From a virus: DNA of 64,000 nucleotides. Each line of letters opens with the position of its first letter. Within the stretch, counting starts at the first letter, position 1. The translations under genes were made by a program, and so were the position numbers. Shown piece by piece: positions 18,992-41,713 of this stretch. Under the pieces are notes generated by a model. The model was not told the origin of the DNA, searched no databases, and was given only the letters and a program-made list of their open reading frames with translations. The stretch covers positions 1 to 64,000 of the IMG/VR virus record IMGVR_UViG_3300028794_000198; one strand, written 5' to 3'.

Positions 18992-19582
18992 TCAGGAGCC
19001 GGTGTACGCGGGCGTCACCGGCAGCTTGTCCGTGTGGTAGACCGTGTTTCCGGCGTCGTCCGGGTAGGAGGTGACGGTGATCTCGTAGCCGCTGATTTCG
19101 TCCTGCTTGAAGCTGACGTCGGAGCGGTCCGAGATCTCGCCCTGGGGGACGTAGAAGCCGCGCGAGGTGTCACCATCGAAGATCGCGAACCACCAGGCGC
19201 GACGGTCCGGAGTCGGGGACGCGGTCTCCGCGAACGAGGTGAGGCCGCTGGTCCCGTCCGGGACGAGGTCGCCCGCCGGGATGCGGTACATGACGCTCTG
19301 GACGGAGACGCGGGCCGTCTCCCACAGGGTGATCTTGAACGTCCGGATCGACTTGATGATCGTCGTGCGGATCGGGCTCGTGAGGCCCCACGGGGTGAAC
19401 TCCTGCGAGTCCTCGTCGAAGCCGTAGGTCAGGCCGTCGTCCGAGATGCAGCCCAGCGGCTCCCACGGAGTCGGAGGCTGAAGGAGCGGCGACGTCGGGC
19501 TCGACGTGCCAACGTCGGACACCCAGCCGCCACCGTTCGTGCCGATGATCGTGAGGTCCGCCGCGCGGGTGATGTTGACCAT
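18992..19582 (-). CDS. major tail (tube) protein
   Basis: LGCISDDGL...TPWG...YEITVTSYPD; GGAG RBS. Confidence 0.9.
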   Translation of the reverse strand: MVNITRAADLTIIGTNGGGWVSDVGTSSPTSPLLQPPTPWEPLGCISDDGLTYGFDEDSQEFTPWGLTSPIRTTIIKSIRTFKITLWETARVSVQSVMYRIPAGDLVPDGTSGLTSFAETASPTPDRRAWWFAIFDGDTSRGFYVPQGEISDRSDVSFKQDEISGYEITVTSYPDDAGNTVYHTDKLPVTPAYTGS

Positions 19583-19664
19583 GAAGGGTCTCCAGACATG
19601 CGAAAACCCCGCACGGCGGCGAGGTTCAGAGGGAAACAGGGTCCGGCGCGGGCCCGAAAGCCGG

Positions 19665-20057
19665 TCAGGAGACCGGGTGACAGAAGATTTCGTAGGTGCC
19701 GCCAACCCGGCGCAGGGCGACGTTCTCGTAGTCCCTCGGCCCGGGCAGCGTCAGTGCCGCCACCCGACCGAACACGACCGTGTCCCCGAAAGAGCCGGGG
19801 AGGTCGCCCGTGAGCCAGGCATGCACTGACCGGCTCCAGGTGATCGCAGCGGAACGGGTCTCGCCGAAAACGTCCATGTCGACGAGGAAGCGGGCGAGCC
19901 GGAACCCGTCGTCGCTACCGGCCGGAACCTGCTGGAACCGGATGGTCGGCAGCTCGTTGAGCAGATTGTTGTCGAGCTCGTCCCGCACCACGGCATCCGG
20001 GAAGCGGGCCGTGGCCCGGGTGATGAGTTCCAGCTCGATGTCGACGAGGGCGGTCAC
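19665..20057 (-). CDS. tail terminator / tail completion protein
   Basis: Position; VDIELEL...GSDDG...VDMDVF. Confidence 0.75.
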   Translation of the reverse strand: MTALVDIELELITRATARFPDAVVRDELDNNLLNELPTIRFQQVPAGSDDGFRLARFLVDMDVFGETRSAAITWSRSVHAWLTGDLPGSFGDTVVFGRVAALTLPGPRDYENVALRRVGGTYEIFCHPVS

Positions 20058-21522: not shown

Positions 21523-22551
21523 CTATCCGGCCAGTCCCTCTACGGCTCCGCACCAGGCAGCCAGGTCGGCCGTCGGATCCAGCTCGGCAGACCGGGCCTT
21601 CGCCCGCTTGCCGGCGAGCCGGTACTCGGACGCCGTGCGCAGCTTCCGGATCACCGCCTCGTAGCCGTCGAGATCCTGACGCTCGATGAAGATGCCGCCC
21701 TCGCCGAGCGACTCACACAGGCCCGGGGTGGGGTGGGCCAGGACTGGGATCCCTGAAGCGAGCGCCTCGACGCCTGCCCGGCCCCACGACTCGTAGGACG
21801 ACGGCATCAGCAGCAGGCGCGTCCGCGCATACACCGTGTCGCGCATCTCGTGCCCGGAGACGTGCTCGACTTCCTCGACGTTCGGCAGGTCCGAGTAGTC
21901 GGTCTGCTCGCCGTAGGAGCCCTTCGCCGCCAGGAACTTGATGTCCGGCATGCGCTTGGCCAGCTTGTGGAACAGCAGGCCGCCCTTTTCCGGGTTGGTG
22001 TTGACCAGCGTCACCCGGTCGCCGGGCTTCGCCGCATACTCCTTGGCGAACACCGGAGGGCGAACAACGATCGACTGCTCGGGCCGGATGCCCTTGGGGT
22101 GGTCCACGAAGTGCAGTTCGGCCTCCCGGGCCATCCACTGCGAGTTGTAGACCGCCAGCGCCGTCGAGCCCGACGCCATGTCCCGGAACGTTGGCAGGAA
22201 CGTGTTGTGGCAGATCGACACGAACGGCTTCCCGTAGCCGCGGGCCAGTGCGGCAGTCGACGGCACATTCTCCAGGTGGGACACCAGAACGCTCGCCCGC
22301 CGGACCGCAGTTGCGAAGTCCAGGCGGGACTCCAGCGGCACCACCTTCACGCCGTCCAGCTCATACGGTTCATGATCCTCGCCGTAGCGGGACAGCCACA
22401 CCGTGACCTCGTGCCCGCGCTCGACGAGAGCCCGGAACATCGACCAGGCCATCCACTCCGCCCCGGCATTGTGCCGGGGCGGGGCGGCGTGCAGCCGGGC
22501 AACGACCTGCATCGCCCGACTGCCCTTCCCGCCGCCGCGGGCCTGCGTCAC
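21523..22551 (-). CDS. GT4 (GT-B) glycosyltransferase
   Basis: GAE, RGHEVTV, YNSQW, KGG, PS..ESWGRAGVEAL..GIPV (EX7E); start overlaps the capsid stop. Confidence 0.9.
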   Translation of the reverse strand: MTQARGGGKGSRAMQVVARLHAAPPRHNAGAEWMAWSMFRALVERGHEVTVWLSRYGEDHEPYELDGVKVVPLESRLDFATAVRRASVLVSHLENVPSTAALARGYGKPFVSICHNTFLPTFRDMASGSTALAVYNSQWMAREAELHFVDHPKGIRPEQSIVVRPPVFAKEYAAKPGDRVTLVNTNPEKGGLLFHKLAKRMPDIKFLAAKGSYGEQTDYSDLPNVEEVEHVSGHEMRDTVYARTRLLLMPSSYESWGRAGVEALASGIPVLAHPTPGLCESLGEGGIFIERQDLDGYEAVIRKLRTASEYRLAGKRAKARSAELDPTADLAAWCGAVEGLAG

Positions 22552-23507
22552 GACGAGGAGCCGGCCGTGCCGGTGTACTTGACGAACGCCTGTGCGTCAC
22601 CCTGCACGTAGCCGTAGAACGCCTCTGCGAGGATCAGCACCAGGTTCTCCTGGAACGCCGAGTGGACGCCGCCGTCCTCGTCGACGTAGGTGGCCTCCTT
22701 GGAGATCCGCACGGTGATGTCCATGCCGACGCCGTAAGCCGCCTGCGACCAGTCTCCGCCGATCGCGCGCAGGCCCGTGTCTGAGCTGGTGGACTGGCGG
22801 CGCTGCTTGCCCGACACGCTCCGCGAGTACGCGAGCGGCTCACCGATCAGCGTTCCCGCCGACGCCATCTGCGTGCCCGGGACGGTCGTGTCGACGAGGA
22901 TCGGACGGCCCGTGGTGTCCGTCGCGAGCAGCAGACGCGGCTTCAGCCGGTGGTCCGCCACCGTGCCGGTGTAGTCCCAGTCGTCGTTGATGACCAGGCC
23001 CATGCCGTTGACGAAGTCCGCCCACACGCCGCCGTCCGCCTGCGTGGCCGTGCCGAGCGCGATCGAGTTGGTGGTCTCCGCGAGGTAGTCGTCGAACGGG
23101 CCGGCCGCGCCCTTCATGGTGAGGCCGTGGATCGCCGCGTGGTCGAAGGCGCGGGCGAAGGCCGTCGGCAGATCCCGCTGCAGCTGCGTGTACAGCCCGC
23201 CCGCGTTGGTCATCGCGACCTCTTCGGCCACCGGGATGAGGACGGCGACCTTCTTCGCGGTCATCTGCTTGATGCTGACCCCGCCGCTCGACAGCGGCTT
23301 CCGGGCGGCCTGGCCGACCCAGTCGGCGACCGGCACGTCCATCGGGATCGGGATCGACGTGGTCGCGTCGATCGCGAGCGGCGCCGGACGGGCGAGCGCC
23401 ATCACCGCGGACTGCTCGACGCTCTTCTCGAAAATGGGGCCGGCGAGGGTTCGCGGCAGGAGTGAAGCGTTGACATCACTCAGCTTGATCGGGGCCGTAG
23501 CCACCAT
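22548..23507 (-). CDS. major capsid protein (HK97 fold)
   Basis: WVGQ..RKP, KKVAVLIPV.EE, FDHAAIHG, FQENLVLILAE. Confidence 0.93.
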   Translation of the reverse strand: MVATAPIKLSDVNASLLPRTLAGPIFEKSVEQSAVMALARPAPLAIDATTSIPIPMDVPVADWVGQAARKPLSSGGVSIKQMTAKKVAVLIPVAEEVAMTNAGGLYTQLQRDLPTAFARAFDHAAIHGLTMKGAAGPFDDYLAETTNSIALGTATQADGGVWADFVNGMGLVINDDWDYTGTVADHRLKPRLLLATDTTGRPILVDTTVPGTQMASAGTLIGEPLAYSRSVSGKQRRQSTSSDTGLRAIGGDWSQAAYGVGMDITVRISKEATYVDEDGGVHSAFQENLVLILAEAFYGYVQGDAQAFVKYTGTAGSSS

Positions 23508-24252: not shown

Positions 24253-25044
24253 TCAGCCGTGCTCGGCTATGGCCCGCCGGAACAGGCGGAGCTGATCGCC
24301 GGAATGGCCTGCGGCGTACTGCTGGTACAGGCGATCCCACTCCTGGGCGTGAGGCGACAGCTCGAAGCGCTGACCTCGGAAGACGGGGACGATCGCGCAG
24401 TGGCAGTCGTTGTGGAACTTCACGACCGAGGCGTCGCCAGTGAACAGTTCGTTCGCATCCCGGCCCGCCGTCTGGGCGTTCCGATAGACGGCGCCCCTGG
24501 ATGCCATCAAGCGACAGAACGCACAGGCCCCCAGCGCGGCAGCGCGGGCATAGGCGACAGCCTGCGGATCCGAATTCACCGCCTGCCGGAGTGTGGCCCT
24601 GCCCCGATCCGCAACCAGCTTCTGTGTCGCGCCGTCGGCTTTGGTCATCGCGGCTTCGAGCCGCACATCCAGAGGCTTCTGCTGGGCAACCGTGGCGACA
24701 GCGTCGTCGCGCGGCCACAGGTCTTTCGTCGCCCACCGCATCGCGCTGTCCACCTGCTCGCCCGGCGGGGGATCCGCCAGCGGCACAGTGAATGCCCCCG
24801 CCGCACCGGCAGAGACCCGCTCCCCGTCGTAAAAGTCGGCAGCCAGAGTCGCCGACACCTCCGAGTAGCGGGCCACGATCGCGGCGACAGCCTCAATCCA
24901 GGGCGGCACCGAGGTCTGCAGCCGAGACGGGTTGATGAGACGCCGAATCCCCCGCAAGTCCCGCAGGAGCAGCCGGGTGAGCCCCAACTGGGCGGCGCGC
25001 CACCGGCCAGCCGACGCGGAGCCGTCAGAGGTTGTTGACGCCAA
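24253..25044 (-). CDS. MuF-like minor capsid / head maturation protein
   Basis: CAFCRLMASRG..Y and HNDCHC motifs. Confidence 0.85.
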   Translation of the reverse strand: MASTTSDGSASAGRWRAAQLGLTRLLLRDLRGIRRLINPSRLQTSVPPWIEAVAAIVARYSEVSATLAADFYDGERVSAGAAGAFTVPLADPPPGEQVDSAMRWATKDLWPRDDAVATVAQQKPLDVRLEAAMTKADGATQKLVADRGRATLRQAVNSDPQAVAYARAAALGACAFCRLMASRGAVYRNAQTAGRDANELFTGDASVVKFHNDCHCAIVPVFRGQRFELSPHAQEWDRLYQQYAAGHSGDQLRLFRRAIAEHG

Positions 25045-26491
25045 GGCCGACCTCCGGCGGAGTCACCGCAGGCGAACTAGCTCCGGCGCCGAGTTCGGCC
25101 AGCCGATCCATCAGGGAGTTACTTCCGGCCTGGCCTGCAGACCGGGAGCGGTCAGCGCGAACCCGCTGCCGCTGGCCTTCCGTCAAGCCCGCCATCTCCA
25201 ACGTCACATCGGAATCGGCAGGCAGAATGCCCGCCTGGACCAGCTTCACCGTGGCGTCCGCCTGCGCGGCCACCGTCGGCGTCGCCGGGTTGCGCCACAC
25301 CGTCTCGATGCGGCGTGTCTTGTCCGGCGGCTCGCCGTCCCGCACCCACAGCGCGAGGCGCATGGCCTGCTGCCAGGCCGCCCCATACCGGCGGATGCGG
25401 CGCTCGGACCGCTTCACCAGCTTCGCCTCGGTCGACCGGATGGCATCCGCCGAGGCAGGGTTGTCGGTCGTGTAGCCGAGCATGTGGGGCGGCAGGCCGA
25501 ACTGCGCCGACATGATCCGCGCATACAGGTCGATGATCCGCGTCATCGCCGTCGGATCGTGAGCCGCGAACTGGCCCACGTCCGGAACGTTGCCGTCCTC
25601 GTCCCGCTCCAGAGCGAGCACGCGGCCGATGTACGTCTCCCAGGCACTCTTCGCGTTGCCCTCCGCATCCTGGAAGGCGGACTCGGAGGCGCCGAGGATG
25701 TAGCGCTGCGGGGCGCCGAAGAACTCGGCCGCCACCTCCATGCCCATCAGGCGCCGGCATGCAGCATCAGTGATCGACATGACCTCGGGGGTGATCTCCG
25801 ACCTGCCCACCCGGTCCGCGGTGCGCTGGCGGTTCGCCATCCGCACCACCGGCACGACACCCAGGTTATGGATGTCCCGGTCGACGACCTCCCAGCCGCC
25901 CGACTCCGACGGCAGCGCCGTGACGGTCTGATCCGGCAGGTACAAGACGATCATCCGCTCCTCGGGGCCCGACTCCAGATACGAGTCGGCCCGGCACTCA
26001 CGGAGTGCCGCAGTACCCATGCGGATCCGGGCGTCCCACAGCAGCGTCATGTCGAGCGGGGACTCCACCGTGATCAGTGGCGGGCAGTCCGGGGTGCCGC
26101 AGTCACCCGAGCCGACCGCGAGGTACTCGCGGCCGTACACCAGGGCGTCCAGGTGCGCGAGGGACGACTCGTCGAAGAGGTCGTTGGCGTCGGCGATCTC
26201 GTCAAGATCCGACGAGTCGGAACCGTCCTTCCATCGGAACGCCTCCAAGTCGAGGCGCTCCTCCAGGGACTCGACGCCGACCCGAGGCCATCCGATCACC
26301 GTATGCAAGCCCTTGAGCTGCGGCGGAATCGAGATACCCAGATCGCGCACCAGCTGCTCGCCGTTGAAGTACGAGTCCCGCAACTGCAGCGCCCACCGGT
26401 CCCGCAGCATGTCCGCGCGCAGCATGTTGATCAGCGCAAGTTCGTCGTCCGACAGATACACCAGCGGCAGTTCAGGGATCGAGACAGTCAC
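25025..26491 (-). CDS. portal protein (SPP1 gp6-like)
   Basis: GWPR, GRSEI, PQRYILG, NPASADAI. Confidence 0.93.
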   Translation of the reverse strand: MTVSIPELPLVYLSDDELALINMLRADMLRDRWALQLRDSYFNGEQLVRDLGISIPPQLKGLHTVIGWPRVGVESLEERLDLEAFRWKDGSDSSDLDEIADANDLFDESSLAHLDALVYGREYLAVGSGDCGTPDCPPLITVESPLDMTLLWDARIRMGTAALRECRADSYLESGPEERMIVLYLPDQTVTALPSESGGWEVVDRDIHNLGVVPVVRMANRQRTADRVGRSEITPEVMSITDAACRRLMGMEVAAEFFGAPQRYILGASESAFQDAEGNAKSAWETYIGRVLALERDEDGNVPDVGQFAAHDPTAMTRIIDLYARIMSAQFGLPPHMLGYTTDNPASADAIRSTEAKLVKRSERRIRRYGAAWQQAMRLALWVRDGEPPDKTRRIETVWRNPATPTVAAQADATVKLVQAGILPADSDVTLEMAGLTEGQRQRVRADRSRSAGQAGSNSLMDRLAELGAGASSPAVTPPEVGLGVNNL

Positions 26492-28260
26492 CGCAACACC
26501 ACCACCCTGCCTTTACCGCGCACGGTGGAGCGCTTCTGATTCTTCGGACTGTTCAACACCAGGCGCCGCAGCATGCGGGCGCCGACCATGCACACCGCGA
26601 GGTCGATTTTCCGGGCGGACTCGCGGTGCTCCTTGCCGATCGTGATCCCCCAAGCATTCGTCCGCCTGCGGGCATTGATCACATGGGTGCGCATCACCTT
26701 GTGGCCGTCGTGGGCCAGGTTCCGCTGCAGCACATCCTCATGCGCGCGCTTCACCGCGTCGGTAAACGTCTCCTGATTGCGGCGGTCACGCATGTCCCAG
26801 CGAACCGCGTGCGCCTTCGGGCCGGCCGATACGGCGCGCAGCGTGAGCTTCTTCCCGAATGCCTGCCCCCAGCGGTCCAGGTAGGTGTCCCAGTACATTT
26901 CGCCGTCGTCGTCCTTGCCGGAGCCGGGGTCGGCATAGAACGCCAGCACCCTGAACCGTCCGAACGCGTTGGCCACAACGCCGTCGACGTCCTCGCGCGG
27001 CACCTGGTACGGCATATAGCCCGGCGTTTCCGGCGACGGCCAGTTCGGAGGCCTCTGCCACACGCCCAGCGTCGACACCAGACCGTCCGACATGCGGCAG
27101 GCCGCCAGGCCCGTCGCATCGTCCGACTTTGAACCGTCGAAGAAGAGGACGACCTCGTCACCGTCTGCCAGCGCCAGATCCTCGCGCTTGCAGGCATCCC
27201 ACTCGTAGCGGGCCAGCCACGCATCCTCCGCCGCGGCGATCTGGTTGAACCAGAAGCGCCGACTGCGGGAAGGCGGGTTGCGGACGTCGAGGATCGACTT
27301 GATGATCCGGGGAATGTTCAGCCAGACCGAGTCGCCCCGGACGGCAAGCAGCACCTTCTCCAGCCACGGCCTGGTGAGCTTCGCCTCGGGCGGCGCCTCC
27401 AGCGAGTCGTACAGAATCCCCGTGTCCTCGGCGCGGCCTGCCTCGGCCGCCTCGTAGGCGTCGCGGGTCTGCTCAGCGACCGAGTCCTCGCCGGGCTCGA
27501 ACGCGTTGGTGATCGCGAATGTCCGGGCCGAACCGTCCGCCGACTTCGTAGCGTTGCGCTCGATCGTGGCGGCCATCTCGTGGCCCTGGTTCGACTCGAT
27601 CCAGTGGTGCGTCTCGTTGAGCAGGGTGAAGGTGGTCCGGCCGCCCTCAAGGGCGCGCGGCGAAGAGGTCACGGCCTCGATGCGCGCCTGCCCCTTGTGG
27701 GCGTAGACGATCTCCTTGCCGACATCGATGCCGAACTCGGCCCTGGCTTTCGGGGTGAACAGTGACCCGAAGATGATCATTGTGTTGCGGGTCTGATCCT
27801 TCGACACCGCAGCCACCTGCACCCACGGCTCCAGGTGGGGCTCGCCGACCGCCTGCCCCTCCGGCACGCCACTCTCGTCGTCCGGGCCGGCAATCCGCCC
27901 CGACCAGCGGGACGGGCCGACGAACTCGACAGCGCACAACGTAGCGCCGAACGGATCCTTGCCCCAGCCCTTCAAGCGCTGAAGCACGGCATCTCGGTAC
28001 GCGAACTCGCCGGTCACTGGATCGAGGGCAAACCACCACAGGACCAAGCGGACCTGCTCGCTCGTGTACCGCCACCGCTCACCGCGATGCTGAAGATAGG
28101 CGCCCGTCCACACGAGAACATGCCAGCCGAGCGTGAACGCCGGCTTGATGAACAGGCCGTCCTCGCCGCGCGTCCAGGTCGGCCCGATGACAACGGGCGT
28201 GACCTCGTCCGGGACTTCCTCGACCGACTGCTCAGCCACCGAAGGCGGAGCGGTAGTCAT
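26488..28260 (-). CDS. terminase large subunit
   Basis: RLKGWGKD Walker A, LLNETH, FDGSKSDDAT, KIDLAV. Confidence 0.95.
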   Translation of the reverse strand: MTTAPPSVAEQSVEEVPDEVTPVVIGPTWTRGEDGLFIKPAFTLGWHVLVWTGAYLQHRGERWRYTSEQVRLVLWWFALDPVTGEFAYRDAVLQRLKGWGKDPFGATLCAVEFVGPSRWSGRIAGPDDESGVPEGQAVGEPHLEPWVQVAAVSKDQTRNTMIIFGSLFTPKARAEFGIDVGKEIVYAHKGQARIEAVTSSPRALEGGRTTFTLLNETHHWIESNQGHEMAATIERNATKSADGSARTFAITNAFEPGEDSVAEQTRDAYEAAEAGRAEDTGILYDSLEAPPEAKLTRPWLEKVLLAVRGDSVWLNIPRIIKSILDVRNPPSRSRRFWFNQIAAAEDAWLARYEWDACKREDLALADGDEVVLFFDGSKSDDATGLAACRMSDGLVSTLGVWQRPPNWPSPETPGYMPYQVPREDVDGVVANAFGRFRVLAFYADPGSGKDDDGEMYWDTYLDRWGQAFGKKLTLRAVSAGPKAHAVRWDMRDRRNQETFTDAVKRAHEDVLQRNLAHDGHKVMRTHVINARRRTNAWGITIGKEHRESARKIDLAVCMVGARMLRRLVLNSPKNQKRSTVRGKGRVVVLR

Positions 28261-33085: not shown

Positions 33086-33484
33086 TCAGAGCCACATCAC
33101 GGCAGCGGCATTGATCGCCAAGTGCATCGCGTTGTCCGCAATGATCAGTAGCCAGACGGCCAGCCAGACCGGTCGGTCCTTGTGGTAGCCCGTCGCCGAG
33201 CACTCCGACCACGGATGCCAGTAGGAGCGCGGAGCCAGGAAGTTCTTTGCCCACACGACGTGCCGCGCTAGGCGGTAGTGATCGATGACCGCATGGGTCA
33301 CGACGATGACCGCGAGCGCGACAGGCGACCGGGTGACGAGCAGGAATGGCAGGCCGTAAGTAAGCGCGTGCGCCCAGGCTGGCCACCAGCGCTTCGTCTT
33401 CTCGTTGGCCATCCAGTCGGATTGCAGGACGTAGTCCCCGAAGAGGTGGGCGAGGAGTAGGCCGAACGCAACCTCACCGGTCAC
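33086..33484 (-). CDS. DUF3307 membrane protein
   Basis: AHLFGDYVLQSDWMA..K, H...Y, HAVIDH, ADNAMH. Confidence 0.85.
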   Translation of the reverse strand: MTGEVAFGLLLAHLFGDYVLQSDWMANEKTKRWWPAWAHALTYGLPFLLVTRSPVALAVIVVTHAVIDHYRLARHVVWAKNFLAPRSYWHPWSECSATGYHKDRPVWLAVWLLIIADNAMHLAINAAAVMWL

Positions 33485-34071
33485 AGGGCCCGCCACACCG
33501 ACCATGGCCGGTCGGCTTCGACGCGCTCCATCTTCAGCTTCGCGGCTAGCTCGTCCTGCCGCTCACGCGCCCAGGTCGTGACGCCGAGCCAGCCGTGCCC
33601 GTCCGACGGCTCATCCGACACGGGCCAGTCGAGGGCTAGCAGGCCGCCCTTCTTCACCACCGCACGCAGGTTGCTGACGAGTTGCTCACCGGTCGCGTAG
33701 TCGTGGTGGATGAGCACGGCGAGGCAGTACGCGGCGTCGAACTTGCGGCGGCCGAGATGCCTCCCGAAGTCGGAGCCGTCGGACTGGAACGTGGTGAGGC
33801 CGGGGTCGCGTTCGGCGAGCGCCGCAAGCATGCGCGGAGAGGCGTCGACGCCGGTCACGTCGTAGCCCATGGCGCGGAGCGGAATGGCGACGCGGCCGTC
33901 TCCGCATCCGAAGTCGAGCACCCGCGCTGCGGCAGGAATATCGGCGGCGAGGAGGACGGCCTGCGCCCGCCCGGATGCCCGGTAGGCATCCTCGGAGATG
34001 CCGCGCGTGGGGTGGATGGCGCCAGCCGCTTCAGGCTGGTCCCACGCCTTGATGACGTCTTCGGCGCTCAC
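33481..34071 (-). CDS. class I SAM-dependent methyltransferase
   Basis: VLDFGCGDGR, GVDAS..ML, FD....VLIH. Confidence 0.88.
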   Translation of the reverse strand: MSAEDVIKAWDQPEAAGAIHPTRGISEDAYRASGRAQAVLLAADIPAAARVLDFGCGDGRVAIPLRAMGYDVTGVDASPRMLAALAERDPGLTTFQSDGSDFGRHLGRRKFDAAYCLAVLIHHDYATGEQLVSNLRAVVKKGGLLALDWPVSDEPSDGHGWLGVTTWARERQDELAAKLKMERVEADRPWSVWRAL

Positions 34072-35321
34072 GACTTCCTCCCTACGCGGATGGTGGTGAC
34101 ACCCGACTGATCCGGCATGTAGCCGTGAGGGTCGATAACGACCGAGCCGGGCGGGAGGCGCAAGTGCAGGAACGCATCATGCCGGGTGGCGATCACGATG
34201 ACGCCGGGCTCGTCGGGGGCGAAGGTGCCACCGCTGTCGACGTGCGGATCCCAGTGCTCCACGTCGAGGTCGCGCGCCCGAAGCTGGTGGGCGAGAAGCA
34301 GCCCAGCGGAGCCGTTCACGAGGCTGACGTTGGGCTTGTACGCCTTGCCGAGGATGCAGATCGGCAGGCCGCTCATGCGGTGCCAGTGCTCAACCAGATC
34401 GGCCAGCCACGCGGACTGCTGCTCGCGGGCGTCGGAGACGTAACCCATCAGGTCGACGGACAGGTCAAGGCGCTGGGCCAGCCAACTCATGGCCTGGTTG
34501 TCGCGGGGGTGGCAGGCTCCAGAGTCGCCCATGCCGCCGCGCATGTAGGCCGGCGAGGTGATGCGGTCGGTGGCGAGTGCGAGCCCATCGGCGACTTGGT
34601 CGCAGTCGGCGCCGGTTTTCTGGCAGATCTCCATGACCATGTTCGCGAACACGATCTTCATGGAGACGAAGCAGTTGTAGGCAACCTTCGTCAGCTCGGC
34701 GGACTCGATCGACACGGCATGCACGGGCCGGTCATGCACGGTGCGGTACAGGTCTGCGATGTCGGCGACAGCTCCAGCGTCGTCGCTGCCGAGGAGGACG
34801 AACTCGGGGTGGAGGAAGTCCTGCACGGTGGTCGACATGGCAATGAAGTAGGGCCCGTAGACGAGTCGCACGTTCGGCCCGCACAGCGGGGCGAGGTAGG
34901 CGCGGGTAGTGCCGGGCAGCATGGTCGAGATGACGACCAGGGTGATCTGCTTGTCCTGCGCCTCGGCTGCCTGGGCGACGTCGCGGACGGCTTGAATGAG
35001 GTAGCCGTACTCGAAGTCGACCGGCTCGTCGATGATCGGTGTCTCGCCGCCGTATCGCGGGTCGTGCGGGGTCTGCACGGACACCATGACGATGCCCTCG
35101 CTCGCCGCGACCACGTCGGACGGCGAAGGGGCGAGGATCATTCGGGAACCGTTGAGGAGTTCCTCAATGCCAGCCTCTTCCGGCGGTGGCACTTGTCGGT
35201 TGAGGATCTGTTGCGGCCGGGGCGAAGGGTCGTAGCCGACGATGTGATGCCCGCCATGCTTCTCCATGGCGAGCGCACACGTGAGCCCGAGCTTCCCGAG
35301 ACCGATCCAGCCGAGCCTCAT
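34068..35321 (-). CDS. UDP-glucose/GDP-mannose 6-dehydrogenase family
   Basis: GLGKLG, VQTP, STMLPGT, SAELTKVAYN, GACHPRD (catalytic Cys), AYKPN. Confidence 0.92.
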   Translation of the reverse strand: MRLGWIGLGKLGLTCALAMEKHGGHHIVGYDPSPRPQQILNRQVPPPEEAGIEELLNGSRMILAPSPSDVVAASEGIVMVSVQTPHDPRYGGETPIIDEPVDFEYGYLIQAVRDVAQAAEAQDKQITLVVISTMLPGTTRAYLAPLCGPNVRLVYGPYFIAMSTTVQDFLHPEFVLLGSDDAGAVADIADLYRTVHDRPVHAVSIESAELTKVAYNCFVSMKIVFANMVMEICQKTGADCDQVADGLALATDRITSPAYMRGGMGDSGACHPRDNQAMSWLAQRLDLSVDLMGYVSDAREQQSAWLADLVEHWHRMSGLPICILGKAYKPNVSLVNGSAGLLLAHQLRARDLDVEHWDPHVDSGGTFAPDEPGVIVIATRHDAFLHLRLPPGSVVIDPHGYMPDQSGVTTIRVGRKS

Positions 35322-36100
35322 CCGGCCGCCTCCTTCTTGCGTAGGACGGCCGCGAGGTATTGGCCGGTCGGGGTGAGGTATTCGCATCGCTCAACAGCGA
35401 ACAGGTCGCCGAAGCGCTGTTCCAGACGGTCGCGGCTGTACCAGTCGGCATATTCCCCGACCTGGTCGAAGTAGCGGACGAAGCGTTCGAAGCCCGGGTC
35501 GGTGGTGGCGTCGTCGGGCGGCTCGGTGCCGGTGGCCTGGATCCAGCCGCGGTCGGAGTAGAGCATCAGCCGGGCGACGCCGTCGGGCCGGAGGATTTGG
35601 TGGGCGCGTTCCATGACCTGGCGGGCCCACGGGATGTGGTGGAGGACGCCGTTGCAGTGGAACACGTCGTAGCTGCCGGGATCGGCTTCGATGTACGGCG
35701 GTTCGCCGAGCGCGCGGTAGATCGTCAGCGCGGGCTGTTCGGCGATCCGGTCGGCGTACAGGCCGAGGACGCGCACGGCGAGGTGCAGGTTGTCGACGCT
35801 GATGTCCGCGAGGTCGACGCGGTTCCCGGCGAGGGCGAGCTCCAGGGCCTCGACGCCGACGCCACAGCCAAAGTCGAGCACATCCTGGCCGCCGGGCTCG
35901 TCGAGGCCCATGAGGTCGCGCCATAGGCCGTCATGGTTGCGCCAGCCGCCGTAGCGGGTGGCGCGCATCTGCTCGACCAGGGCCCGCAGTTCGTCGTCCG
36001 GCTTTGCGAGCAGGTCGGCGGCGGGGATGTAGCCGACGTCGTCGACGGGCGGACGCGACCATGCAGCACGCTGCCGTTCGAGGAAGCCTTCGTCGGTCAC
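35318..36100 (-). CDS. class I SAM-dependent methyltransferase
   Basis: VLDFGCGVG, ADIS, GVLHHIP, LRPDG. Confidence 0.88.
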   Translation of the reverse strand: MTDEGFLERQRAAWSRPPVDDVGYIPAADLLAKPDDELRALVEQMRATRYGGWRNHDGLWRDLMGLDEPGGQDVLDFGCGVGVEALELALAGNRVDLADISVDNLHLAVRVLGLYADRIAEQPALTIYRALGEPPYIEADPGSYDVFHCNGVLHHIPWARQVMERAHQILRPDGVARLMLYSDRGWIQATGTEPPDDATTDPGFERFVRYFDQVGEYADWYSRDRLEQRFGDLFAVERCEYLTPTGQYLAAVLRKKEAAG

Positions 36101-36750
36101 CGGGCCTCCGTGGCGATCAGGGCGCGAAGAATCGTGACGTCGGCGGCTCGGGCGGCTTCCATGGCGGGGCTGCCGTAGTCGGCGGTGCGGTAGCCGGCCA
36201 GTGATTCGGCGCGGGTCTGGTCGTCGTGTCCGCCCGTGAGGTCGGCCCGGTCGTGCAGGATTTCGATGTCGACACGTTCGTGCCGGTCGAGGGACTGACC
36301 CAGATATTGGATCCACGAGTCGCAGTGCGGCGACAGGGAGACGTGCCCGAGGCAGTCGGTCCAGGCTGCGGGCCAGATCGGGAAGGTGTTGCAGGTCGCG
36401 ATGTCGTTGCTGCGCGGCCACAACGCGCCGGGCTCCTGTTCGCGGACTGCGGCGTCCCAGCCTGGCGTGAGCATGCGGGCGTCGTCGTTCCACAGCATCA
36501 GCCACTCGCCGTCAGCCTGCTCGGCGAGCCGGTTGACGTACTCGTGCAGCCGCGGATAGCCGAAACGTTCCGGTGCTGTCCAAGTGCTGGCCTGCCACGG
36601 GAGTTCGGCGTTCAGTGTGGCCTCGTCGTCGGGGTCTGCGGCGACGAGGATCTGAATGCTGCCGGGCCGGTCCGCGAGGTCAAGGAGGCTACAGATGGAC
36701 TCAACGAGGGCCTTCGGCCGGCCGCGGGAAGGCAGCAGGATCGAGATCAA
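36097..36750 (-). CDS. GT2 glycosyltransferase
   Basis: TTG start, ILLPSRGRP, ADPDD, WNDD, HCDSW. Confidence 0.85.
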   Translation of the reverse strand: MISILLPSRGRPKALVESICSLLDLADRPGSIQILVAADPDDEATLNAELPWQASTWTAPERFGYPRLHEYVNRLAEQADGEWLMLWNDDARMLTPGWDAAVREQEPGALWPRSNDIATCNTFPIWPAAWTDCLGHVSLSPHCDSWIQYLGQSLDRHERVDIEILHDRADLTGGHDDQTRAESLAGYRTADYGSPAMEAARAADVTILRALIATEAR

Positions 36751-36800
36751 CCGGCCACCGTCCCGCGAGTGGGGATGATGACGAGCAGGTCGTCGGCCAT
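36747..36800 (-). pseudogene. 17-codon remnant of a GT2 glycosyltransferase N-terminus
   Basis: AGGAGG RBS followed by MADDLLVIIPTRGTVAG*; VIIPTRG matches the GT2 first strand. Confidence 0.6.
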
Positions 36801-36812
36801 GGCGCGGGCCTC

Positions 36813-37106
36813 CTAGTAGACGGTGAGGATGCCCGCCCTGTAGACGGGCGTTTCGGTTCCTGCCGCCCAGGTGATCCACACGCTGTATTCGCCCGCAGTG
36901 AGCGCGGTGGTGCCGCCTGCGGGGCCGACGAGGATGCGGGCCCAACTGGTGGCCCATTCGCCGTTGAACCAGTCGCTGGTGCCCGGGTTGCCGCTGGTGG
37001 CCATGAACGCGAACTTGGGGGCGACGGCCACGTTGATGAGGCTGCCGGACAGGCGGGAGCTGGCGGAGATCCGCACATATTCGGTGCTGGTGGCGGCTAT
37101 CTCCAT
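36813..37106 (-). CDS. small Ig/BppU-like virion protein (module 2, gene C)
   Basis: STEY...ARILVGP...G.Y.VW...AGILTV; paralog of 38358-38642. Confidence 0.75.
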   Translation of the reverse strand: MEIAATSTEYVRISASSRLSGSLINVAVAPKFAFMATSGNPGTSDWFNGEWATSWARILVGPAGGTTALTAGEYSVWITWAAGTETPVYRAGILTVY

Positions 37107-37945
37107 GGCCTGCTCACCGCCCATCCGCTGACGGGGTGCCCGAGTTGCACGTCGACGTCGATGGTGGCGCCGACAAGAGCGGCGGTGAGCGTCGAGCCGC
37201 CGGTGAGGGCTGCGCCGGTCATGGCGGTGATGGCGGGGGCCGCAGCGCCGAGTGCGGCGTCGGCGGTGAGGTCCGCTGTGACGATGGTCCGTGCGGTGGC
37301 GGCGGCGGCGAGGGTGGTGTCGCTGGTGAGGGCGGCGGTGGCGAAGAAGGTGGCGGCGGCCGTCGTGGCCGTGTTGACGTTGTCGAACTCGGTGAAGTTC
37401 GTGGTGCCGTTGTTGCGGTAGGAGTACAGGTCAAGGGCGCACGTGTTGCGGGTGGTTCCGGCGGTGATCCATGCGGGGGTGGCGAGGGTGCGCCGGTTCG
37501 TCCACGTGCTGCCGTCGGTGCTGGTGTCCCAGTACACGTTGGTTCCGTCTTCACGGAAGCGGAGCCACAGGTGTGTGACGGCGCTGTAGGTGAGGACGGT
37601 GGCGCCCGCATCGGAGTAGGCGACGTTGGATTCGAGGCGCAGCGTCCCGGCAACGGTGTTGATGTTGAACGCGAGGTTGGTGCCGTCGGTGACGTTGATG
37701 ACGGAGAACGCAGTCTGGGCTTCGACGGTGGCACTGGCCGCGGCTGCCGCGGTGGGGACTTGCAGGTAGACGCTGCTTCCGGCGAGGGTCCACACCTTGG
37801 CGGTCTGGTAGCCGGAGTAGTTGCCTGCAATGCAGGGGATGTGGGCGCGTCCGCCGGTTTCGGTGCAGCCGCCGTAGGCGTTGCCCCAGTCGGGTCCGAT
37901 GATGTTGTCGTTGAAGTTGTCTACGAGGGTGGCGATGAGTGCCAT
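37097..37945 (-). CDS. fibre protein: lectin-like head + ~3 Ala/Thr repeats (module 2, gene B)
   Basis: DNFND...FDNVN beta-sandwich, repeat region, C-terminal IDVDVQLGHP..W. Confidence 0.75.
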   Translation of the reverse strand: MALIATLVDNFNDNIIGPDWGNAYGGCTETGGRAHIPCIAGNYSGYQTAKVWTLAGSSVYLQVPTAAAAASATVEAQTAFSVINVTDGTNLAFNINTVAGTLRLESNVAYSDAGATVLTYSAVTHLWLRFREDGTNVYWDTSTDGSTWTNRRTLATPAWITAGTTRNTCALDLYSYRNNGTTNFTEFDNVNTATTAAATFFATAALTSDTTLAAAATARTIVTADLTADAALGAAAPAITAMTGAALTGGSTLTAALVGATIDVDVQLGHPVSGWAVSRPWR

Positions 37946-37958
37946 GCCGCCTCCTCAG

Positions 37959-38342
37959 CTACGCGAGGGCGAGCGTGAGGGTGCCTGCGGCGATGCGCAG
38001 TTCGTCGCCCGCTGCGACGGTGCGGCTGGTGCCGACGGCCCCGTACCAGAAGCGGATGGGGGTGCCTGCGGAGTCCCAGATTTCTACGCCCACGACAGTG
38101 CAGGCGGGCATGCCGGTCCAGGAGAGGTCAGCACTGTTGGAGGTGGCTCCGCTGCTGGCGGCGGCGACGGTGAGGGTCTTGCGGGCGTAGGAGCCGCCGG
38201 TGACCTCGGTGCCTGCGGTCGCGTCGTTGCCGTTCGCGGTGACGAGCGCGACCTTGAGGGGGGCGGTGGGGGCGGTGGTGGTGTTGCCCATGAGCCAGTC
38301 GAGAGCCCTGTTCTCGGCTGTATTTGAAAGGTTGTCGCTGAT
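37959..38342 (-). CDS. small fibre-associated virion protein (module 2, gene A); ATC at the expected start
   Basis: AAAGGGGG RBS, then ATC-AGC-GAC-AAC (ISDNLSNTAENRALDWLMG...EVTGGSYAR); similar architecture to 40340-40738. Confidence 0.7.
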   Translation of the reverse strand: MSDNLSNTAENRALDWLMGNTTTAPTAPLKVALVTANGNDATAGTEVTGGSYARKTLTVAAASSGATSNSADLSWTGMPACTVVGVEIWDSAGTPIRFWYGAVGTSRTVAAGDELRIAAGTLTLALA

Positions 38343-38357
38343 GAGACTCGCCCCCTT

Positions 38358-38642
38358 TCAGGTGACGGAGAGGATTCCGGCTTTGCGGACGACGTTTTCG
38401 GCGCCGGGCGGATCGAGGTTGATCCACACCCGGTAGTCGCCTGCCGCAAGTTCGAGGCTGCTGTCGGGGCCGACGAGGATGCGGGCGGCGCCGCTCACCC
38501 AGTCCGCGGCATGCCATTCACCGTCGGCGGGATCACTGCGGTGGGCGACGACGGCGATCCGCACCGGAGTACTTCCGGTGTCGACGCCGGCCGGGAGGGT
38601 CGCAGGCACGTGCAGGTATTCGGTGGAGGAGGCGGGGATCAC
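38358..38642 (-). CDS. small Ig/BppU-like virion protein (module 1, gene C)
   Basis: SSTEY...ARILVGP...GDYRVW...AGILSV. Confidence 0.75.
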   Translation of the reverse strand: MIPASSTEYLHVPATLPAGVDTGSTPVRIAVVAHRSDPADGEWHAADWVSGAARILVGPDSSLELAAGDYRVWINLDPPGAENVVRKAGILSVT

Positions 38643-40318
38643 CACGTTGCGCCCACCTTCCAGCCGGTGTCCTGCGGCTCGGCGGCGACCCACGGGTCGC
38701 CGTGCGGTATCCCTGCCGCCCAAGGGCTATAGGGGGCGCCGACGGTGACGTCGATGTCGTCGTGGGTGGAGATCAGCGTCCCGCTGGCCGTGAGCGTCGC
38801 GGTGGCGGCGAGCGCCGTACTGCCGATAGAGGCTTTGACCCCTGACGCCGCCAGTACCGCTGCGATGTCCAGGACGGTTCCCGCGACTGCCGCGCGGCTG
38901 CCTGCCGCCGCGAGAGTGACCGTGGCGCTCAGGGCGGCGTCTGCGAGTACGGGTGGAGTGCCCGTGACTCCGTCGGCCGTCAGGGCGGCCGTGACTGCGA
39001 GGGCGGCTGTACCGGTGCGGCCGGCCTGCCCTTGTGCGGCCAGACCTGCTGTGACGGCGAGGCCGGTGTCGGCGGTGGCGCCTCGCTGTCCGGCCGCGGT
39101 GAGGGATGCTGTGGTGCTGAGGGTGGCGTCGCCGATGGATGCTGTCTGCCCGGCGGCGGTCAGGCCCGCGGTTGCGGGAAGCGCCGCGTCTGCCTGGGTG
39201 GCGCGCATTCCGTCCGCGTCGAGCCCCGCTGACGTGGTGAGTGCGGCCTGCCCTGGGTGATCGACCAGCCCGGCGGCGGCCAGGTTCGCGCTCGCGGTGA
39301 GCGCAGCGCCGCCGACTGCGGTTGTTGCGCCGTCTGCGGCGAGGCCTGCCGTGATGGCGAGGCTTGCCGCTGCGGAGGCGCCGCAGGTCCCAGCTGCCGT
39401 CAGGGTCGCGGCGGGCGCGAGGCTCACATCGCCGGTCGTTGCCCGTAGGCCTGCTGCGGTGAGGGTGGCTGCGGGTGCCAGCGCCGCGGCGCCTGCTGTG
39501 GCGCGAGTGCCGTCCGCCGTCAGGGCCGCCGAGGATGGCAGGGTTGCGGCGCCGGTTGTGGCCCGTACTCCGCCCGCCGACACGCCGGCTGTGGCAGCCA
39601 GGCCCGCGTCTCCGGCCGTAGCCCGAAGGCCACCGGCCGTCAGAGCGGCGGCGGAGGCCAAGGTCGCGCTACCGGTAGCGGCCCGGACTCCAGCAGCGGT
39701 CAGGCCCGCCGTGGCCGCCTGTGCCGCGCCGCCGGTGGTGGCCCGCAGACCGGCCGCGGACAGTGTTGCCGTGTTGGCCAGTGCCGCGTCGCCTGTGGTG
39801 CCGGAGGTGACGTCGGCTCCGGTGAAGTTGTCGAAGCGGAGCGAGTTACTCGACTCGGCGCGGATGCCGACGCTCGTGCCGCTGGTGACGGCCGTGTTGG
39901 TGACGGAGACGCGCGAGATCCCGTTGACGAAGCCTTGGATCGTCGACCCGACGGCCTGCACTTTCGCCACATCGCCCGCGACGGCTGCCGCGGTGTAGCT
40001 GCCGATGGATACAAAGGATCCGCCGACGACGGAGAAGAGGGTCCACGTGGTGCCGTCGTTGCGCCACAGGTAGCCCTGGGTGATCGTCGTGTTGCCGCGA
40101 CACCAGACGCCGTGACTGAGCGCTGCGGTCGCGGTGATCGTGATCTGGGCGGAGTTGTCGTTGGTGGCCATCGCGCCGGTCGCGCGGATGACGATGGTGC
40201 CGCCCGCGGATCCCGATGAGAGTTGGCTGGAGACGATCGACCAAGTGCCGGACACCGCAGTCCAGTTGGCGCCCGGGCTTCCGTCGGCCCGGTTGAAGTC
40301 GTCGCTGAAGCTGGTCAC
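38639..40318 (-). CDS. fibre protein: lectin-like head + 17 x 20-aa Ala/Thr/Gly repeats (module 1, gene B)
   Basis: FSDDFNRADG...FDNF head; repeat consensus xAxLxxxAxLxAxGxxxxxG; C-terminal DIDVTVGAP..PW. Confidence 0.8.
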   Translation of the reverse strand: MTSFSDDFNRADGSPGANWTAVSGTWSIVSSQLSSGSAGGTIVIRATGAMATNDNSAQITITATAALSHGVWCRGNTTITQGYLWRNDGTTWTLFSVVGGSFVSIGSYTAAAVAGDVAKVQAVGSTIQGFVNGISRVSVTNTAVTSGTSVGIRAESSNSLRFDNFTGADVTSGTTGDAALANTATLSAAGLRATTGGAAQAATAGLTAAGVRAATGSATLASAAALTAGGLRATAGDAGLAATAGVSAGGVRATTGAATLPSSAALTADGTRATAGAAALAPAATLTAAGLRATTGDVSLAPAATLTAAGTCGASAAASLAITAGLAADGATTAVGGAALTASANLAAAGLVDHPGQAALTTSAGLDADGMRATQADAALPATAGLTAAGQTASIGDATLSTTASLTAAGQRGATADTGLAVTAGLAAQGQAGRTGTAALAVTAALTADGVTGTPPVLADAALSATVTLAAAGSRAAVAGTVLDIAAVLAASGVKASIGSTALAATATLTASGTLISTHDDIDVTVGAPYSPWAAGIPHGDPWVAAEPQDTGWKVGATW

Positions 40319-40339
40319 GACGGCCTCCCCGTCAGGGCG

Positions 40340-40738
40340 TTACGCGGCCTGCGGGCTTAGCGAGACGGAATGGCTCGTCAATGTGAAGGTATCGGCGGAC
40401 GCCCACGCCTTCGAGGCGGTGAGCTGCACCGAGTACAGGAACGTTCCGCCGGTCACGGCGGTCCACACGGAGATGTCCGTGATCGTTTCCGAGGTGCCGC
40501 CGTTGGTCCACGCCGGGTTGGTGCCGGTCAGCGCGAGGGCGGATCCGGCCGACGATGCGGCGTGCGTGAAGATGACGCGGGTCGCGGAGCCTGCGCTGAT
40601 CGCCGTCGTCCCGGCCGCGCCCGGGTTGGCGGTGTGGAGCTGCGCGTACTCGGCTGCGACCGGGCCGAAGGCAGCACCCGCCGCGCGCAAGGTGTTGAGC
40701 AGGTTGGAGACCAGGGTGGTGGAGAGTCCTTCAGCCAT
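40340..40738 (-). CDS. small fibre-associated virion protein (module 1, gene A)
   Basis: QLHTANPGAAGT...VWTAVTGGTFL...DTFTL. Confidence 0.75.
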   Translation of the reverse strand: MAEGLSTTLVSNLLNTLRAAGAAFGPVAAEYAQLHTANPGAAGTTAISAGSATRVIFTHAASSAGSALALTGTNPAWTNGGTSETITDISVWTAVTGGTFLYSVQLTASKAWASADTFTLTSHSVSLSPQAA

Positions 40739-41072: not shown

Positions 41073-41333
41073 TCAGGCGGTTTCCATGAGGTGCCAGACG
41101 AGTTGGCCGCCGGGTGCGAGCGCGGTGCCGACGTGGTCCAGGTTGTCGGGCATCGACTGTCCGGTGCCGTAGACACGGAAGCTGCGAATGTCGGACGCCC
41201 CGTCGGCGTGGCGGGCCCAGACTTCGACGGCGTGGACGTTCCGGCAGTCGACGTGCACGATCTCGCCGGAGAGCTGCAACGGATGCCAGCGGTCGTCGAC
41301 GGGGATCTCGTACCGCCAGATCGCGTCTGCCAC
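41073..41333 (-). CDS. small phage protein (xGTG...WHL type)
   Basis: IWRYEIP...VYGTG...HVGT...VWHL. Confidence 0.7.
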   Translation of the reverse strand: MADAIWRYEIPVDDRWHPLQLSGEIVHVDCRNVHAVEVWARHADGASDIRSFRVYGTGQSMPDNLDHVGTALAPGGQLVWHLMETA

Positions 41334-41454
41334 CGCTGCCTCCGTCCGGGTTGTTGCCCGCACGGCCCCCACGCGAGGCCGTGCGGGCTGGTTGGGCCGA
41401 GCGCTGAGCGCTTCAAGGCCCGCCCTGCGCAGCTGCCACCGCGCGCAGGGGGCT

Positions 41455-41694
41455 TCAGGCGGCGAGTAACGTCGTCTGCCGCTGAGGAAGTGGTGGCGGC
41501 GGGGTTGGCGTGATCAGCTCGCGAGTGTCCGGGTCTCGCTTGGCGGGGTCGATCTCCATGAGGTCGTAGCGGGCGTTCTTGCCCTTGCCGTAGACGGAGA
41601 TGCGGCCTTCGGATGCCCAGCGCCAGATGGTGCCGATGGGGCGTCCGGTCCAGTAGGCCATGTCGGCTGCGGTGACGAGTGCGGTGGAGGGCAT
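41455..41694 (-). CDS. excisionase/MerR-like HTH protein
   Basis: GRPIGTIWRWASEGRI...RYDL.EI. Confidence 0.75.
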   Translation of the reverse strand: MPSTALVTAADMAYWTGRPIGTIWRWASEGRISVYGKGKNARYDLMEIDPAKRDPDTRELITPTPPPPLPQRQTTLLAA

Positions 41695-41713
41695 GGTCAC
41701 CTCCGGGAACGAC

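Follow-up and report, generated by a model that had tools for sequence, protein, structure and literature searches.

Two adjacent gene modules of a temperate Streptomyces siphophage that probably encode a long and a short beads-on-a-rope fibre

Organisation of the two modules

The window analysed here consists of the first 64 kb (64,000 nucleotides) of the IMG/VR record IMGVR_UViG_3300028794_000198, a single sequence of 90,048 bp that is a complete provirus according to the IMG/VR classification. Between positions 36813 and 40738, this window contains six contiguous genes on the minus strand, named A1, B1, C1, A2, B2, and C2 in the direction of transcription. A sequence-only reading had interpreted them as a tandemly duplicated three-gene fibre module, and the gene order that it proposed was borne out, most of the genes being translationally coupled. 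The six genes probably encode a long and a short beads-on-a-rope accessory fibre, independent of each other, with a putative concanavalin A (ConA)-like tip and an immunoglobulin (Ig)-like candidate anchor for each. The A, B, and C proteins would be the beads, ropes, and anchors of these fibres, respectively.

Probable bead proteins

The product of A1 (132 amino acids; 40340-40738, minus strand) was recognised as a bead subunit (whisker or Fiber-I protein) by its matches to PF23140 ('Podophage GP4 fiber I protein gp80'; E = 2.6e-19, 70.2 bits), PDB entry 8JOU, and phrog_240. Its paralogue A2, on the same strand, counts 110 amino acids when read from the first ATG (37959-38291) and 127 amino acids when read from an upstream ATC (37959-38342). 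The ATG open reading frame of A2 matches PF23140 as well (E = 2.5e-19, 70.3 bits, model positions 18-127), the curated cut-off of this family being 27 bits. In addition, the A proteins match chain a of 8JOU, which is gp80 of the Ralstonia podophage GP4, with an E value of 1e-6 for a single sequence and of 7e-12 with a profile of relatives. Both A1 and A2 are thus members of the family that marks the bead subunit of a GP4-type fibre, and the earlier description of A products of about 130 amino acids holds; the identity between the two proteins is 25%.

The start of A2 deserves attention. A six-frame search retrieved a PF23140 match at 37971-38333 that covers model positions 1-127 with 85.5 bits, compared with 70.3 bits from the ATG, and that reaches 14 codons upstream of the first ATG (38291). 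The in-frame extension encodes an N-terminal helix (ISDNLSNTAENRALDWL) and begins with the ATC at 38340-38342, 8 nt past a Shine-Dalgarno sequence (AAAGGGGG). An ATC occupies the same position in two diverged relatives, L037 (2369-2380) and L038 (about 7629-7640), and a third one, L009, has an ATG there. No alternative start upstream of the A2 ATG was present in the window. Because of the longer family match, the conserved ATC, and the lack of such an alternative start, A2 likely starts at a conserved non-canonical ATC codon. The helix that this start would rescue is the equivalent of the N-terminal helix that pairs the whisker monomers of the Escherichia myophage Bas63 (PMC12609058).

Probable rope proteins

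B1 (559 amino acids; 38639-40318, minus strand) consists of a head, a repetitive middle part, and a tail. The head (residues 1-175; 39794-40318) is a putative ConA-like beta-jelly-roll and the presumed distal tip of the fibre, as suggested by an ESM Atlas model, phrog_2804, and its relatives. The rope (residues 176-515; 38774-39793) is made up of 17 units of 20 amino acids, defined by register, lag, and a hidden Markov model (HMM) of the unit. The C-terminal tail (DDIDVTVGAPYSPW...W...W; 38639-38773 with the stop codon) is presumed to be the anchor-binding segment, given its conservation together with a C1-type gene. B2 (282 amino acids; 37097-37945, minus strand; phrog_14065) has the same layout on a smaller scale, with a head up to about residue 190, about three to four degenerate 20-residue units between residues 191 and 262 approximately, and a tail (IDVDVQLGHPVSGW...PWR). 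A Shine-Dalgarno sequence for B lies in each of the gaps that separate A1 from B1 (21 nt) and A2 from B2 (13 nt).

The repeat structure of B1 is highly regular. Residues 176-455 form 14 units in perfect 20-residue register, followed by an insertion of three residues (TPP) and three more units up to residue 515; accordingly, the unit HMM found 17 units at 20-residue spacing with one step of 23 residues. At lags 20 and 40, the mean BLOSUM62 self-score of B1 amounted to 1.88 and 1.80, respectively, compared with at most 0.52 at lags other than multiples of 20. The best lag of B2 was 20 too. The 20-residue repeats reported in the sequence-only reading were therefore retrieved, with n = 17 in B1 and about three to four, instead of about three, in B2. 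A consensus of 235 units from relatives reads G-D-A-A-L-A-A-T-A-T-L-T-A-x-G-x-R-A-T-x, with the highest conservation for G15 (100%), A13 (94%), A9 (91%), L11 (90%), and L5 (88%). L5, L11, and G15 in this numbering are the conserved positions L4, L10, and G14 noticed before. The unit reads as an amphipathic beta-strand of about 12 residues, of which one face (A3-L5-A7-A9-L11-A13) would be small and hydrophobic and the other rich in threonine, closed by Gly15 and a short linker. At the level of sequence, both B1 and B2 display the series of putative docking sites, encoded beside a bead gene, that is expected of the rope in a GP4-type fibre.

Tandem Repeats Finder detected no 60-bp tandem array in the DNA of B1, indicating that the repeats are old and maintained at the protein level; a recent origin by slippage was rejected on the same ground. 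A pentapeptide-repeat or solenoid reading of the unit was rejected as well, in this case by the leucine spacing.

The heads of the B proteins gave no Pfam match at E <= 0.1, and neither did the remainder of these proteins match Pfam. Comparison of B1 with PDB sequences returned noise only, and a tblastn search of phage records returned no match. Structural comparison was more informative. The ESM Atlas model of the B1 head (residues 1-170) aligned at template modelling (TM) scores of 0.81-0.87 with clusters carrying PF06439 (3-keto-disaccharide hydrolase, ConA-like) and PF23918 (DUF7257, found in phage minor tail proteins), and phrog_2804 is a family of virion structural proteins. For the B2 head, a feature search found GH43_C2/DUF1349 clusters, which are ConA-like, as the nearest ones. 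The AlphaFold2 model of B2, built from an alignment of six sequences, was poor (predicted local distance difference test (pLDDT), 45.7; about 30 in the rope) and was excluded from the fold search; the ESM Atlas model of whole B1 had a predicted TM score (pTM) of 0.39. A ConA-like jelly roll is the lead for both heads. The B1 and B2 heads do not share BLASTP similarity with each other, and heads that are 65-87% identical to that of B1 were found in relatives.

Candidate anchor proteins

C1 (95 amino acids; 38358-38645, minus strand) and C2 (97 amino acids; 36813-37106, minus strand) are 37% identical (E = 9e-17), in agreement with their earlier description as paralogues of about 95 amino acids. 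The GTG start of C1 overlaps the stop codon of B1 (GTGA), and C2, from its ATG, shares 10 nt with the end of B2, so that the B-C pairs of both modules are, judged by these overlaps, translationally coupled. The AlphaFold2 model of C1 (pLDDT, 91.4) is a six-stranded Ig-like beta-sandwich, and the protein is a candidate anchor or collar. C1 had no Pfam or PHROG match; its 196 close homologues occur in Streptomyces genomes and metagenome assemblies.

Comparison with related loci

Searches with A1 yielded eight loci from Streptomyces genomes and 38 from IMG/VR; about 45 related loci were compared and mapped by tblastn. Most of these have an A gene followed by a B1-type head. The B proteins of the relatives range from 338 to 757 amino acids and contain 4 to 26 units, of which the spacing is almost always exactly 20 residues. 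Indeed, protein length rises with unit number from 356 amino acids with 7 units (L026), 400 with 9 (L006), 420 with 10 (L004), 480 with 13 (L007), and 499 with 14 (L011), over 559 with 17 in the window, to 659 with 21 (L031) and 757 with 26 (L020). Similarly, the lengths of 120 further head homologues peak at about 357, 377, 397, 420, 440, and 460 amino acids. Their periodicity at 20 amino acids (Rayleigh R, 0.76-0.79) was reached by none of 5000 uniform nulls, a statistic that describes quantisation among related loci and not independent events. Many class I proteins have, at three units from the tail, a step of 23 residues, which in B1 of the window corresponds to the proline-containing insertion. 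As this hinge is fixed, the variation in unit number lies upstream of it.

Heads and tails of the B proteins vary as well. Three loci (L008, L012, and L013) combine an A1-type bead with a B2-type head on B1-type units, and L037 carries a third head type on B1-type units, indicating that bead type follows rope type and not head type. The type of tail tracks the downstream gene. The DDIDVTVGAPYSPW tail occurs with C1-type proteins only, a tail with 'RW' repeats accompanies C2-like proteins of 103-111 amino acids, and a basic tail accompanies a head-tail adaptor of 268 amino acids (phrog_442). In the loci with a basic tail, the major capsid gene (PF05065) and the adaptor gene flank the A-B pair, and the stop codon of B overlaps the start of the adaptor gene. 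This association of tail and downstream gene points to the neck, where the fibres of GP4 and Bas63 are anchored. In many relatives, the position just upstream of the terminase genes is retained.

Variants of the module were encountered among the relatives. In some loci, an extra gene separates the bead and rope genes (L008, 6398-6856; L012 and L013, equivalent positions; L014, 6390-7733), that of L008 (152 amino acids) having no Pfam or PHROG match. Further, the B2 homologue of L038 (8023-9135) has, in the place of the usual tail, an LtfC-like beta-sandwich at its end (PF23926, 23 bits, which is below the cut-off; phrog_1084 and phrog_3304), and no separate C2 accompanies it; this arrangement is a fusion of rope and sandwich reminiscent of Bas63.

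The second module, A2-B2-C2, was present in four of about 15 comparable loci, namely the window, L009, L037, and L038. Unlike B1, the B2 homologues have a constant length (278-282 amino acids; 278-280 in L009 and L037). Given the low identity between A1 and A2 (25%) and between C1 and C2 (37%), and the absence of BLASTP similarity between the B heads, the sequences characterise the two modules as the result of old paralogy or acquisition and not of a recent tandem duplication. Hence, of the tandem duplication first proposed, the adjacency of paralogous modules stands, whereas their deep divergence and the restricted occurrence of the second module speak against a duplication event in the strict sense.

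Comparison with known rope-and-bead fibres

Since 2023, fibres of this kind have been solved by cryo-EM for a few phages. The Fiber I complex of GP4 (PDB 8JOU, Zheng et al. 2023) comprises, according to the descriptions of GP4 in PMC13730344 and PMC12609058, five dimers of gp80 strung on a rope, which is the product of a separate gene and interlocks with the Ig-like collar protein gp77. The same descriptions have the GP4 fibre lean on the capsid and place the solved anchors of both GP4 and Bas63 at the neck. In Bas63 (PDB 9MT4), two whisker dimers sit on the N-terminal rope of an Ig-like collar protein, and this rope runs through a groove in each whisker monomer, completing its incomplete sandwich (PMC12609058). 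In the Pseudomonas podophage A1002, the nozzle-rope protein gp39 carries 11 dimers of the paralogous proteins gp40 and gp41 on about 330 amino acids and has a globular Ig-like end (PMC13730344). The solved ropes thus use about 15 residues per bead monomer, i.e. about 330 for 22 monomers in A1002 and about 60 for four in Bas63.

The modules of the window resemble GP4 in the Pfam family of the bead (PF23140), in a separate rope protein encoded beside the bead gene, in a small Ig-like protein encoded downstream, and in the period of about 20 residues in the protein that follows the bead. Indeed, the genes of GP4 are transcribed in the order gp80, gp79, gp78, and gp77, and gp79, encoded right after gp80, has a best period of 20 residues; we infer that gp79 is the rope of GP4. 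Differences concern the type of phage and the number of sites, GP4 being a podophage with sites for five dimers and the present element a Streptomyces siphophage with 17 or about three to four units. Moreover, in the latter a putative ConA-like head occurs at the free end of the rope, the C proteins fall outside PF23148, and two full modules lie side by side. With Bas63, the modules would share whisker-type beads threaded on a rope and an Ig-like domain after the rope, which is part of one polypeptide in Bas63, whereas it is divided over B and a coupled C here. Yet, Bas63 has its rope and collar fused, only two dimers, and no distal head domain, and its whisker was not detected by the A sequence profile. 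The likeness to A1002 would reside in the long rope with many docking sites, the two paralogous beads per phage, and the globular domain at the end of the rope. In A1002, however, the rope is part of the nozzle and serves both beads, whereas the present element has a rope and a candidate anchor per bead; at the end of the rope, the domain is Ig-like in A1002 and putatively ConA-like here.

Among actinobacterial siphophages, the cluster L mycobacteriophages offer a comparison, with a PF23140 bead gene directly followed by that of a large protein with 20-residue units. In Faith1, gp22 matches PF23148 (Gp77; E = 1e-28) and gp23 matches PF23140 (E = 8e-30), and gp24 contains about 13 units of 20 amino acids. 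In the repeat region of gp24 and of its counterpart gp42, periods of 20 and 40 residues rank highest, that of 20 being either first or second. Cluster L differs in that a true PF23148 adaptor gene lies upstream of the bead gene, the genes belong to the tail block, and the rope forms the C-terminus of a protein that also has a glycine-rich domain. The trio (Mycobacterium phage Faith1 gp22-gp24, L001, 5431-8466; prophiGD54-2 gp40-42, L002) is annotated as hypothetical, head, and minor tail proteins, a gap that affects more than 100 deposited genomes. No published structure or function of gp22-gp24 was found in the literature searched, nor any report of a rope-and-bead design in siphophages or actinophages.

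Proposed fibre assembly and alternative interpretations

The favoured reading of the six genes as two beads-on-a-rope fibres would entail the following assembly. B would be the rope, of which the N-terminal ConA-like domain forms a distal, probably carbohydrate-binding tip, the middle part a string of 20-residue units of one amphipathic strand of roughly 12 residues each, and the C-terminal tail the segment that binds the Ig-like C protein. Through C, the fibre would be attached to the virion, with the head-tail joint as the most likely site. A would be an incomplete beta-sandwich of the gp80 type that pairs through its N-terminal helix and clamps onto a rope strand, which would complete the A sheet by beta-sheet augmentation. 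Fibre length would then be set by the number of rope units, namely 17 in B1 and about three to four in B2, resulting in a particle with a long and a short fibre that, through different tips, may bind reversibly to glycans on the host surface. We infer the docking and its stoichiometry, the binding to a receptor, the function and location of C, and the presence of the proteins in the virion. As the solved ropes use about 15 residues per monomer, one A monomer per 20-residue unit is by analogy most likely, which is also what the sequence-only reading had predicted. The 20-residue period recurs in gp79 and in cluster L, where it would be expected if the geometry of the bead imposes the period. 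By homology, the idea of strand complementation put forward in that reading is essentially the solved architecture of GP4, Bas63, and A1002. Its companion proposal, of B as a putative ruler on which A subunits would dock, finds support by homology in the relation of A to PF23140 and gp80, and by comparison in the quantised series of 4-26 units and the bead type that follows the rope type. A rather doubtful extension is that the two sets of bead, rope, and anchor are orthogonal, without cross-assembly, each bead recognising the units of its own rope only, that the unit-number ruler (4-26) for fibre reach is freely evolvable, and that bead dosage may be matched to rope length by the strength of the start codon, the bead of the short rope having the ATC.

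Several observations weigh against this interpretation, in particular as regards C. Fold searches with C1 (Foldseek and VIA-align) found generic Ig folds only; the GP4 adaptor (8jou_B) and the Bas63 collar (9mt4_G) ranked 22nd and 26th, neither of them standing out, the latter with a TM score of 0.64 by query amid generic Ig matches. Neither C1 nor C2 matched PF23148 at E <= 1, compared with 86-100 bits for GP4 gp77 and Faith1 gp22, and hhalign of the C profile against gp77 gave a probability of 0.1. A six-frame search of the whole 90-kb genome with PF23148 did not retrieve a gp77-family gene either. C was also compared by hhalign and BLASTP with the class III head-tail adaptor, of which the N-terminal domain was used, and with the L038 domain that resembles LtfC, and no similarity emerged. 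C as a collar of the gp77 family was ruled out by the PF23148 searches of proteins and genome, and the adaptor family of a GP4-type fibre is thus not represented by C1 or C2. Besides, odd as well as even unit numbers occur, so that a strict rule of two units per dimer is not evident, the length statistics come from related loci, the association of tail and downstream gene could reflect mere physical linkage of neighbouring DNA, and gp79 of GP4 is not found in the PDB by sequence. The claim that C anchors the fibre is therefore retained in a reduced form. It finds support in the Ig-like fold and the coupling of B and C, and it loses the link with the GP4 gp77 adaptor family, its role being deduced from synteny. 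By position and fold class, C is a candidate anchor, with a possible role analogous to that of gp77.

Where the fibres are attached is accordingly the part of the model for which an alternative carries some weight. Anchoring of a rope-and-bead fibre on the tail tube, the tail tip, or the capsid surface instead of the neck, with C as a tail collar or a capsid-binding Ig protein, is possible, albeit less probable than the neck. In cluster L mycobacteriophages, the trio of gp77, gp80, and rope genes lies among minor tail genes past the tape measure gene, and the B2 homologue of L038 ends in a sandwich resembling LtfC, a member of the T5-type L-shaped tail fibre family (phrog_3304, with PF23926 at 23 bits and below the cut-off). 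A baseplate chain of DT57C was, weakly, the second Foldseek match of C1, and for the capsid surface, the PHROG label of the bead family is 'head protein' and the fibre of GP4 leans on the capsid. Still, a large class of relatives has the A-B pair between the capsid gene and the head-tail adaptor gene and coupled to the latter, and the solved anchors of GP4 and Bas63 are at the neck.

Two other explanations would do away with the rope-and-bead design or with the virion itself. B may be a self-sufficient fibre or minor tail protein of which the repeats fold alone, as trimeric beta-structure or as a solenoid, with A as a decoration, cap, or chaperone that is not threaded. Annotations of the relatives' B proteins go no further than hypothetical or minor tail protein and a 20-residue period is compatible with some beta-solenoids, but the leucines at unit positions 5 and 11 (spacing of 6 and then 14) do not follow a 5- or 10-residue solenoid pattern, and the rope does not give a confident single-chain fold (pLDDT of about 30 for the B2 rope by AlphaFold2, pTM of 0.39 for whole B1 by ESM Atlas). 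As, in addition, the sole solved role of the A family is that of a bead on a rope and the types of bead and rope go together even where heads are swapped, this explanation is unlikely. Even far less probable is that the module is a prophage 'moron', with products that, instead of being built into the virion, function inside the host cell or at its surface, for example by forming a surface structure or by excluding superinfecting phages. In its favour, the module stands apart from the head and tail gene blocks and has sugar-modifying genes as neighbours, and the genome is classified as a provirus. Conversely, none of the six proteins showed an obvious signal peptide or membrane segment when the sequences were read by eye, the fibre genes are contiguous and co-oriented with the late packaging genes at a position upstream of the terminase genes that is kept in many relatives, and the A family and the PHROG matches of the B heads are virion proteins.

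Rope-and-bead fibres have been recognised only since 2023, in three or four phages of Gram-negative bacteria, and their genes are almost never annotated. On the favoured reading, this locus and its relatives would show the design in Streptomyces siphophages and allow hundreds of 'hypothetical' proteins of actinophages to be annotated, among them gp22-24 of cluster L. The relatives would also constitute a natural experiment, in which a constant arrangement of head, rope, and tail comes with 4-26 units, heads and anchors are swapped as cassettes, and two systems can occur per genome. Several of them reside in strains that can be cultured, namely S. natalensis ATCC 27448 with nine units, S. olivochromogenes DSM 40451 with 10, and S. 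rishiriensis NBRC 13407 with 13. Both the ruler hypothesis, with fibre length and bead copies proportional to unit number, and the specificity between bead and rope are therefore directly testable.

Genomic context

The base composition of the window is about 69% G+C and nearly all genes are on the minus strand. The element is a temperate Streptomyces siphophage or prophage, its siphophage identity following from PHROG matches to structural and packaging genes, among which those of the tape measure protein (13322-18028), the major tail protein (18992-19705), the major capsid protein (22548-23507), the portal protein (25025-26491), and the large terminase subunit (26488-28260). In the direction of transcription, the fibre genes lie upstream of the terminase and structural genes and head the late operon. 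The gene positions thus agree with the context given at first sight, i.e. upstream of the terminase genes, before a glycan cassette, and outside the tail genes. Comparison with the DNA of deposited phages gave a sole match of 155 bp, to Streptomyces phage Kromp.

The glycan cassette (33481-36957), which comes after C2, consists of a glycosyltransferase-like gene (GT1), two methyltransferase genes, and a UDP-glucose dehydrogenase gene, recognised by Pfam and PHROG. GT1, the first methyltransferase gene (MT1), and the UDP-glucose dehydrogenase gene were present in none of the relatives compared, and the second methyltransferase gene recurs in two loci only. Many relatives have C directly followed by the terminase genes, without a glycan cassette. 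As the cassette is not conserved beside the module, a linkage between both was rejected, and the suggestion that the fibres are glycosylated found no support. A distinct glycosyltransferase-like gene (21523-22551, minus strand; phrog_26352, E = 3e-155; phrog_2170, glycosyltransferase, E = 6.5e-11) is found immediately downstream of that of the major capsid protein. The phage may thus glycosylate its virion, as has been reported for some mycobacteriophages.

Upstream of A1, the minus strand carries a DUF7352 gene (41073-41372) and a small gene coding for an excisionase/MerR-like helix-turn-helix protein (41455-41700). Both are preceded by a match to a sigma-70-like promoter (TTGACA-18-GATCAT, 41797-41768, minus strand), which is unique within the region of 32-43 kb. 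This promoter-like site may be the start of a late transcript that includes the fibre modules.

Streptomyces assemblies and IMG/VR repeatedly contain relatives of the 90-kb element that make up an entire contig of about 87-95 kb, such as L004/L021 (NZ_KQ948479.1, 93,191 bp), L003/L019 (90,308-90,318 bp), and L011, L014, L015, and L031 (87-95 kb). One of these whole-contig relatives was binned as a 'Kofleriaceae' metagenome-assembled genome, probably by mis-binning. The recurrence as whole contigs would fit an extrachromosomal or readily excised prophage.

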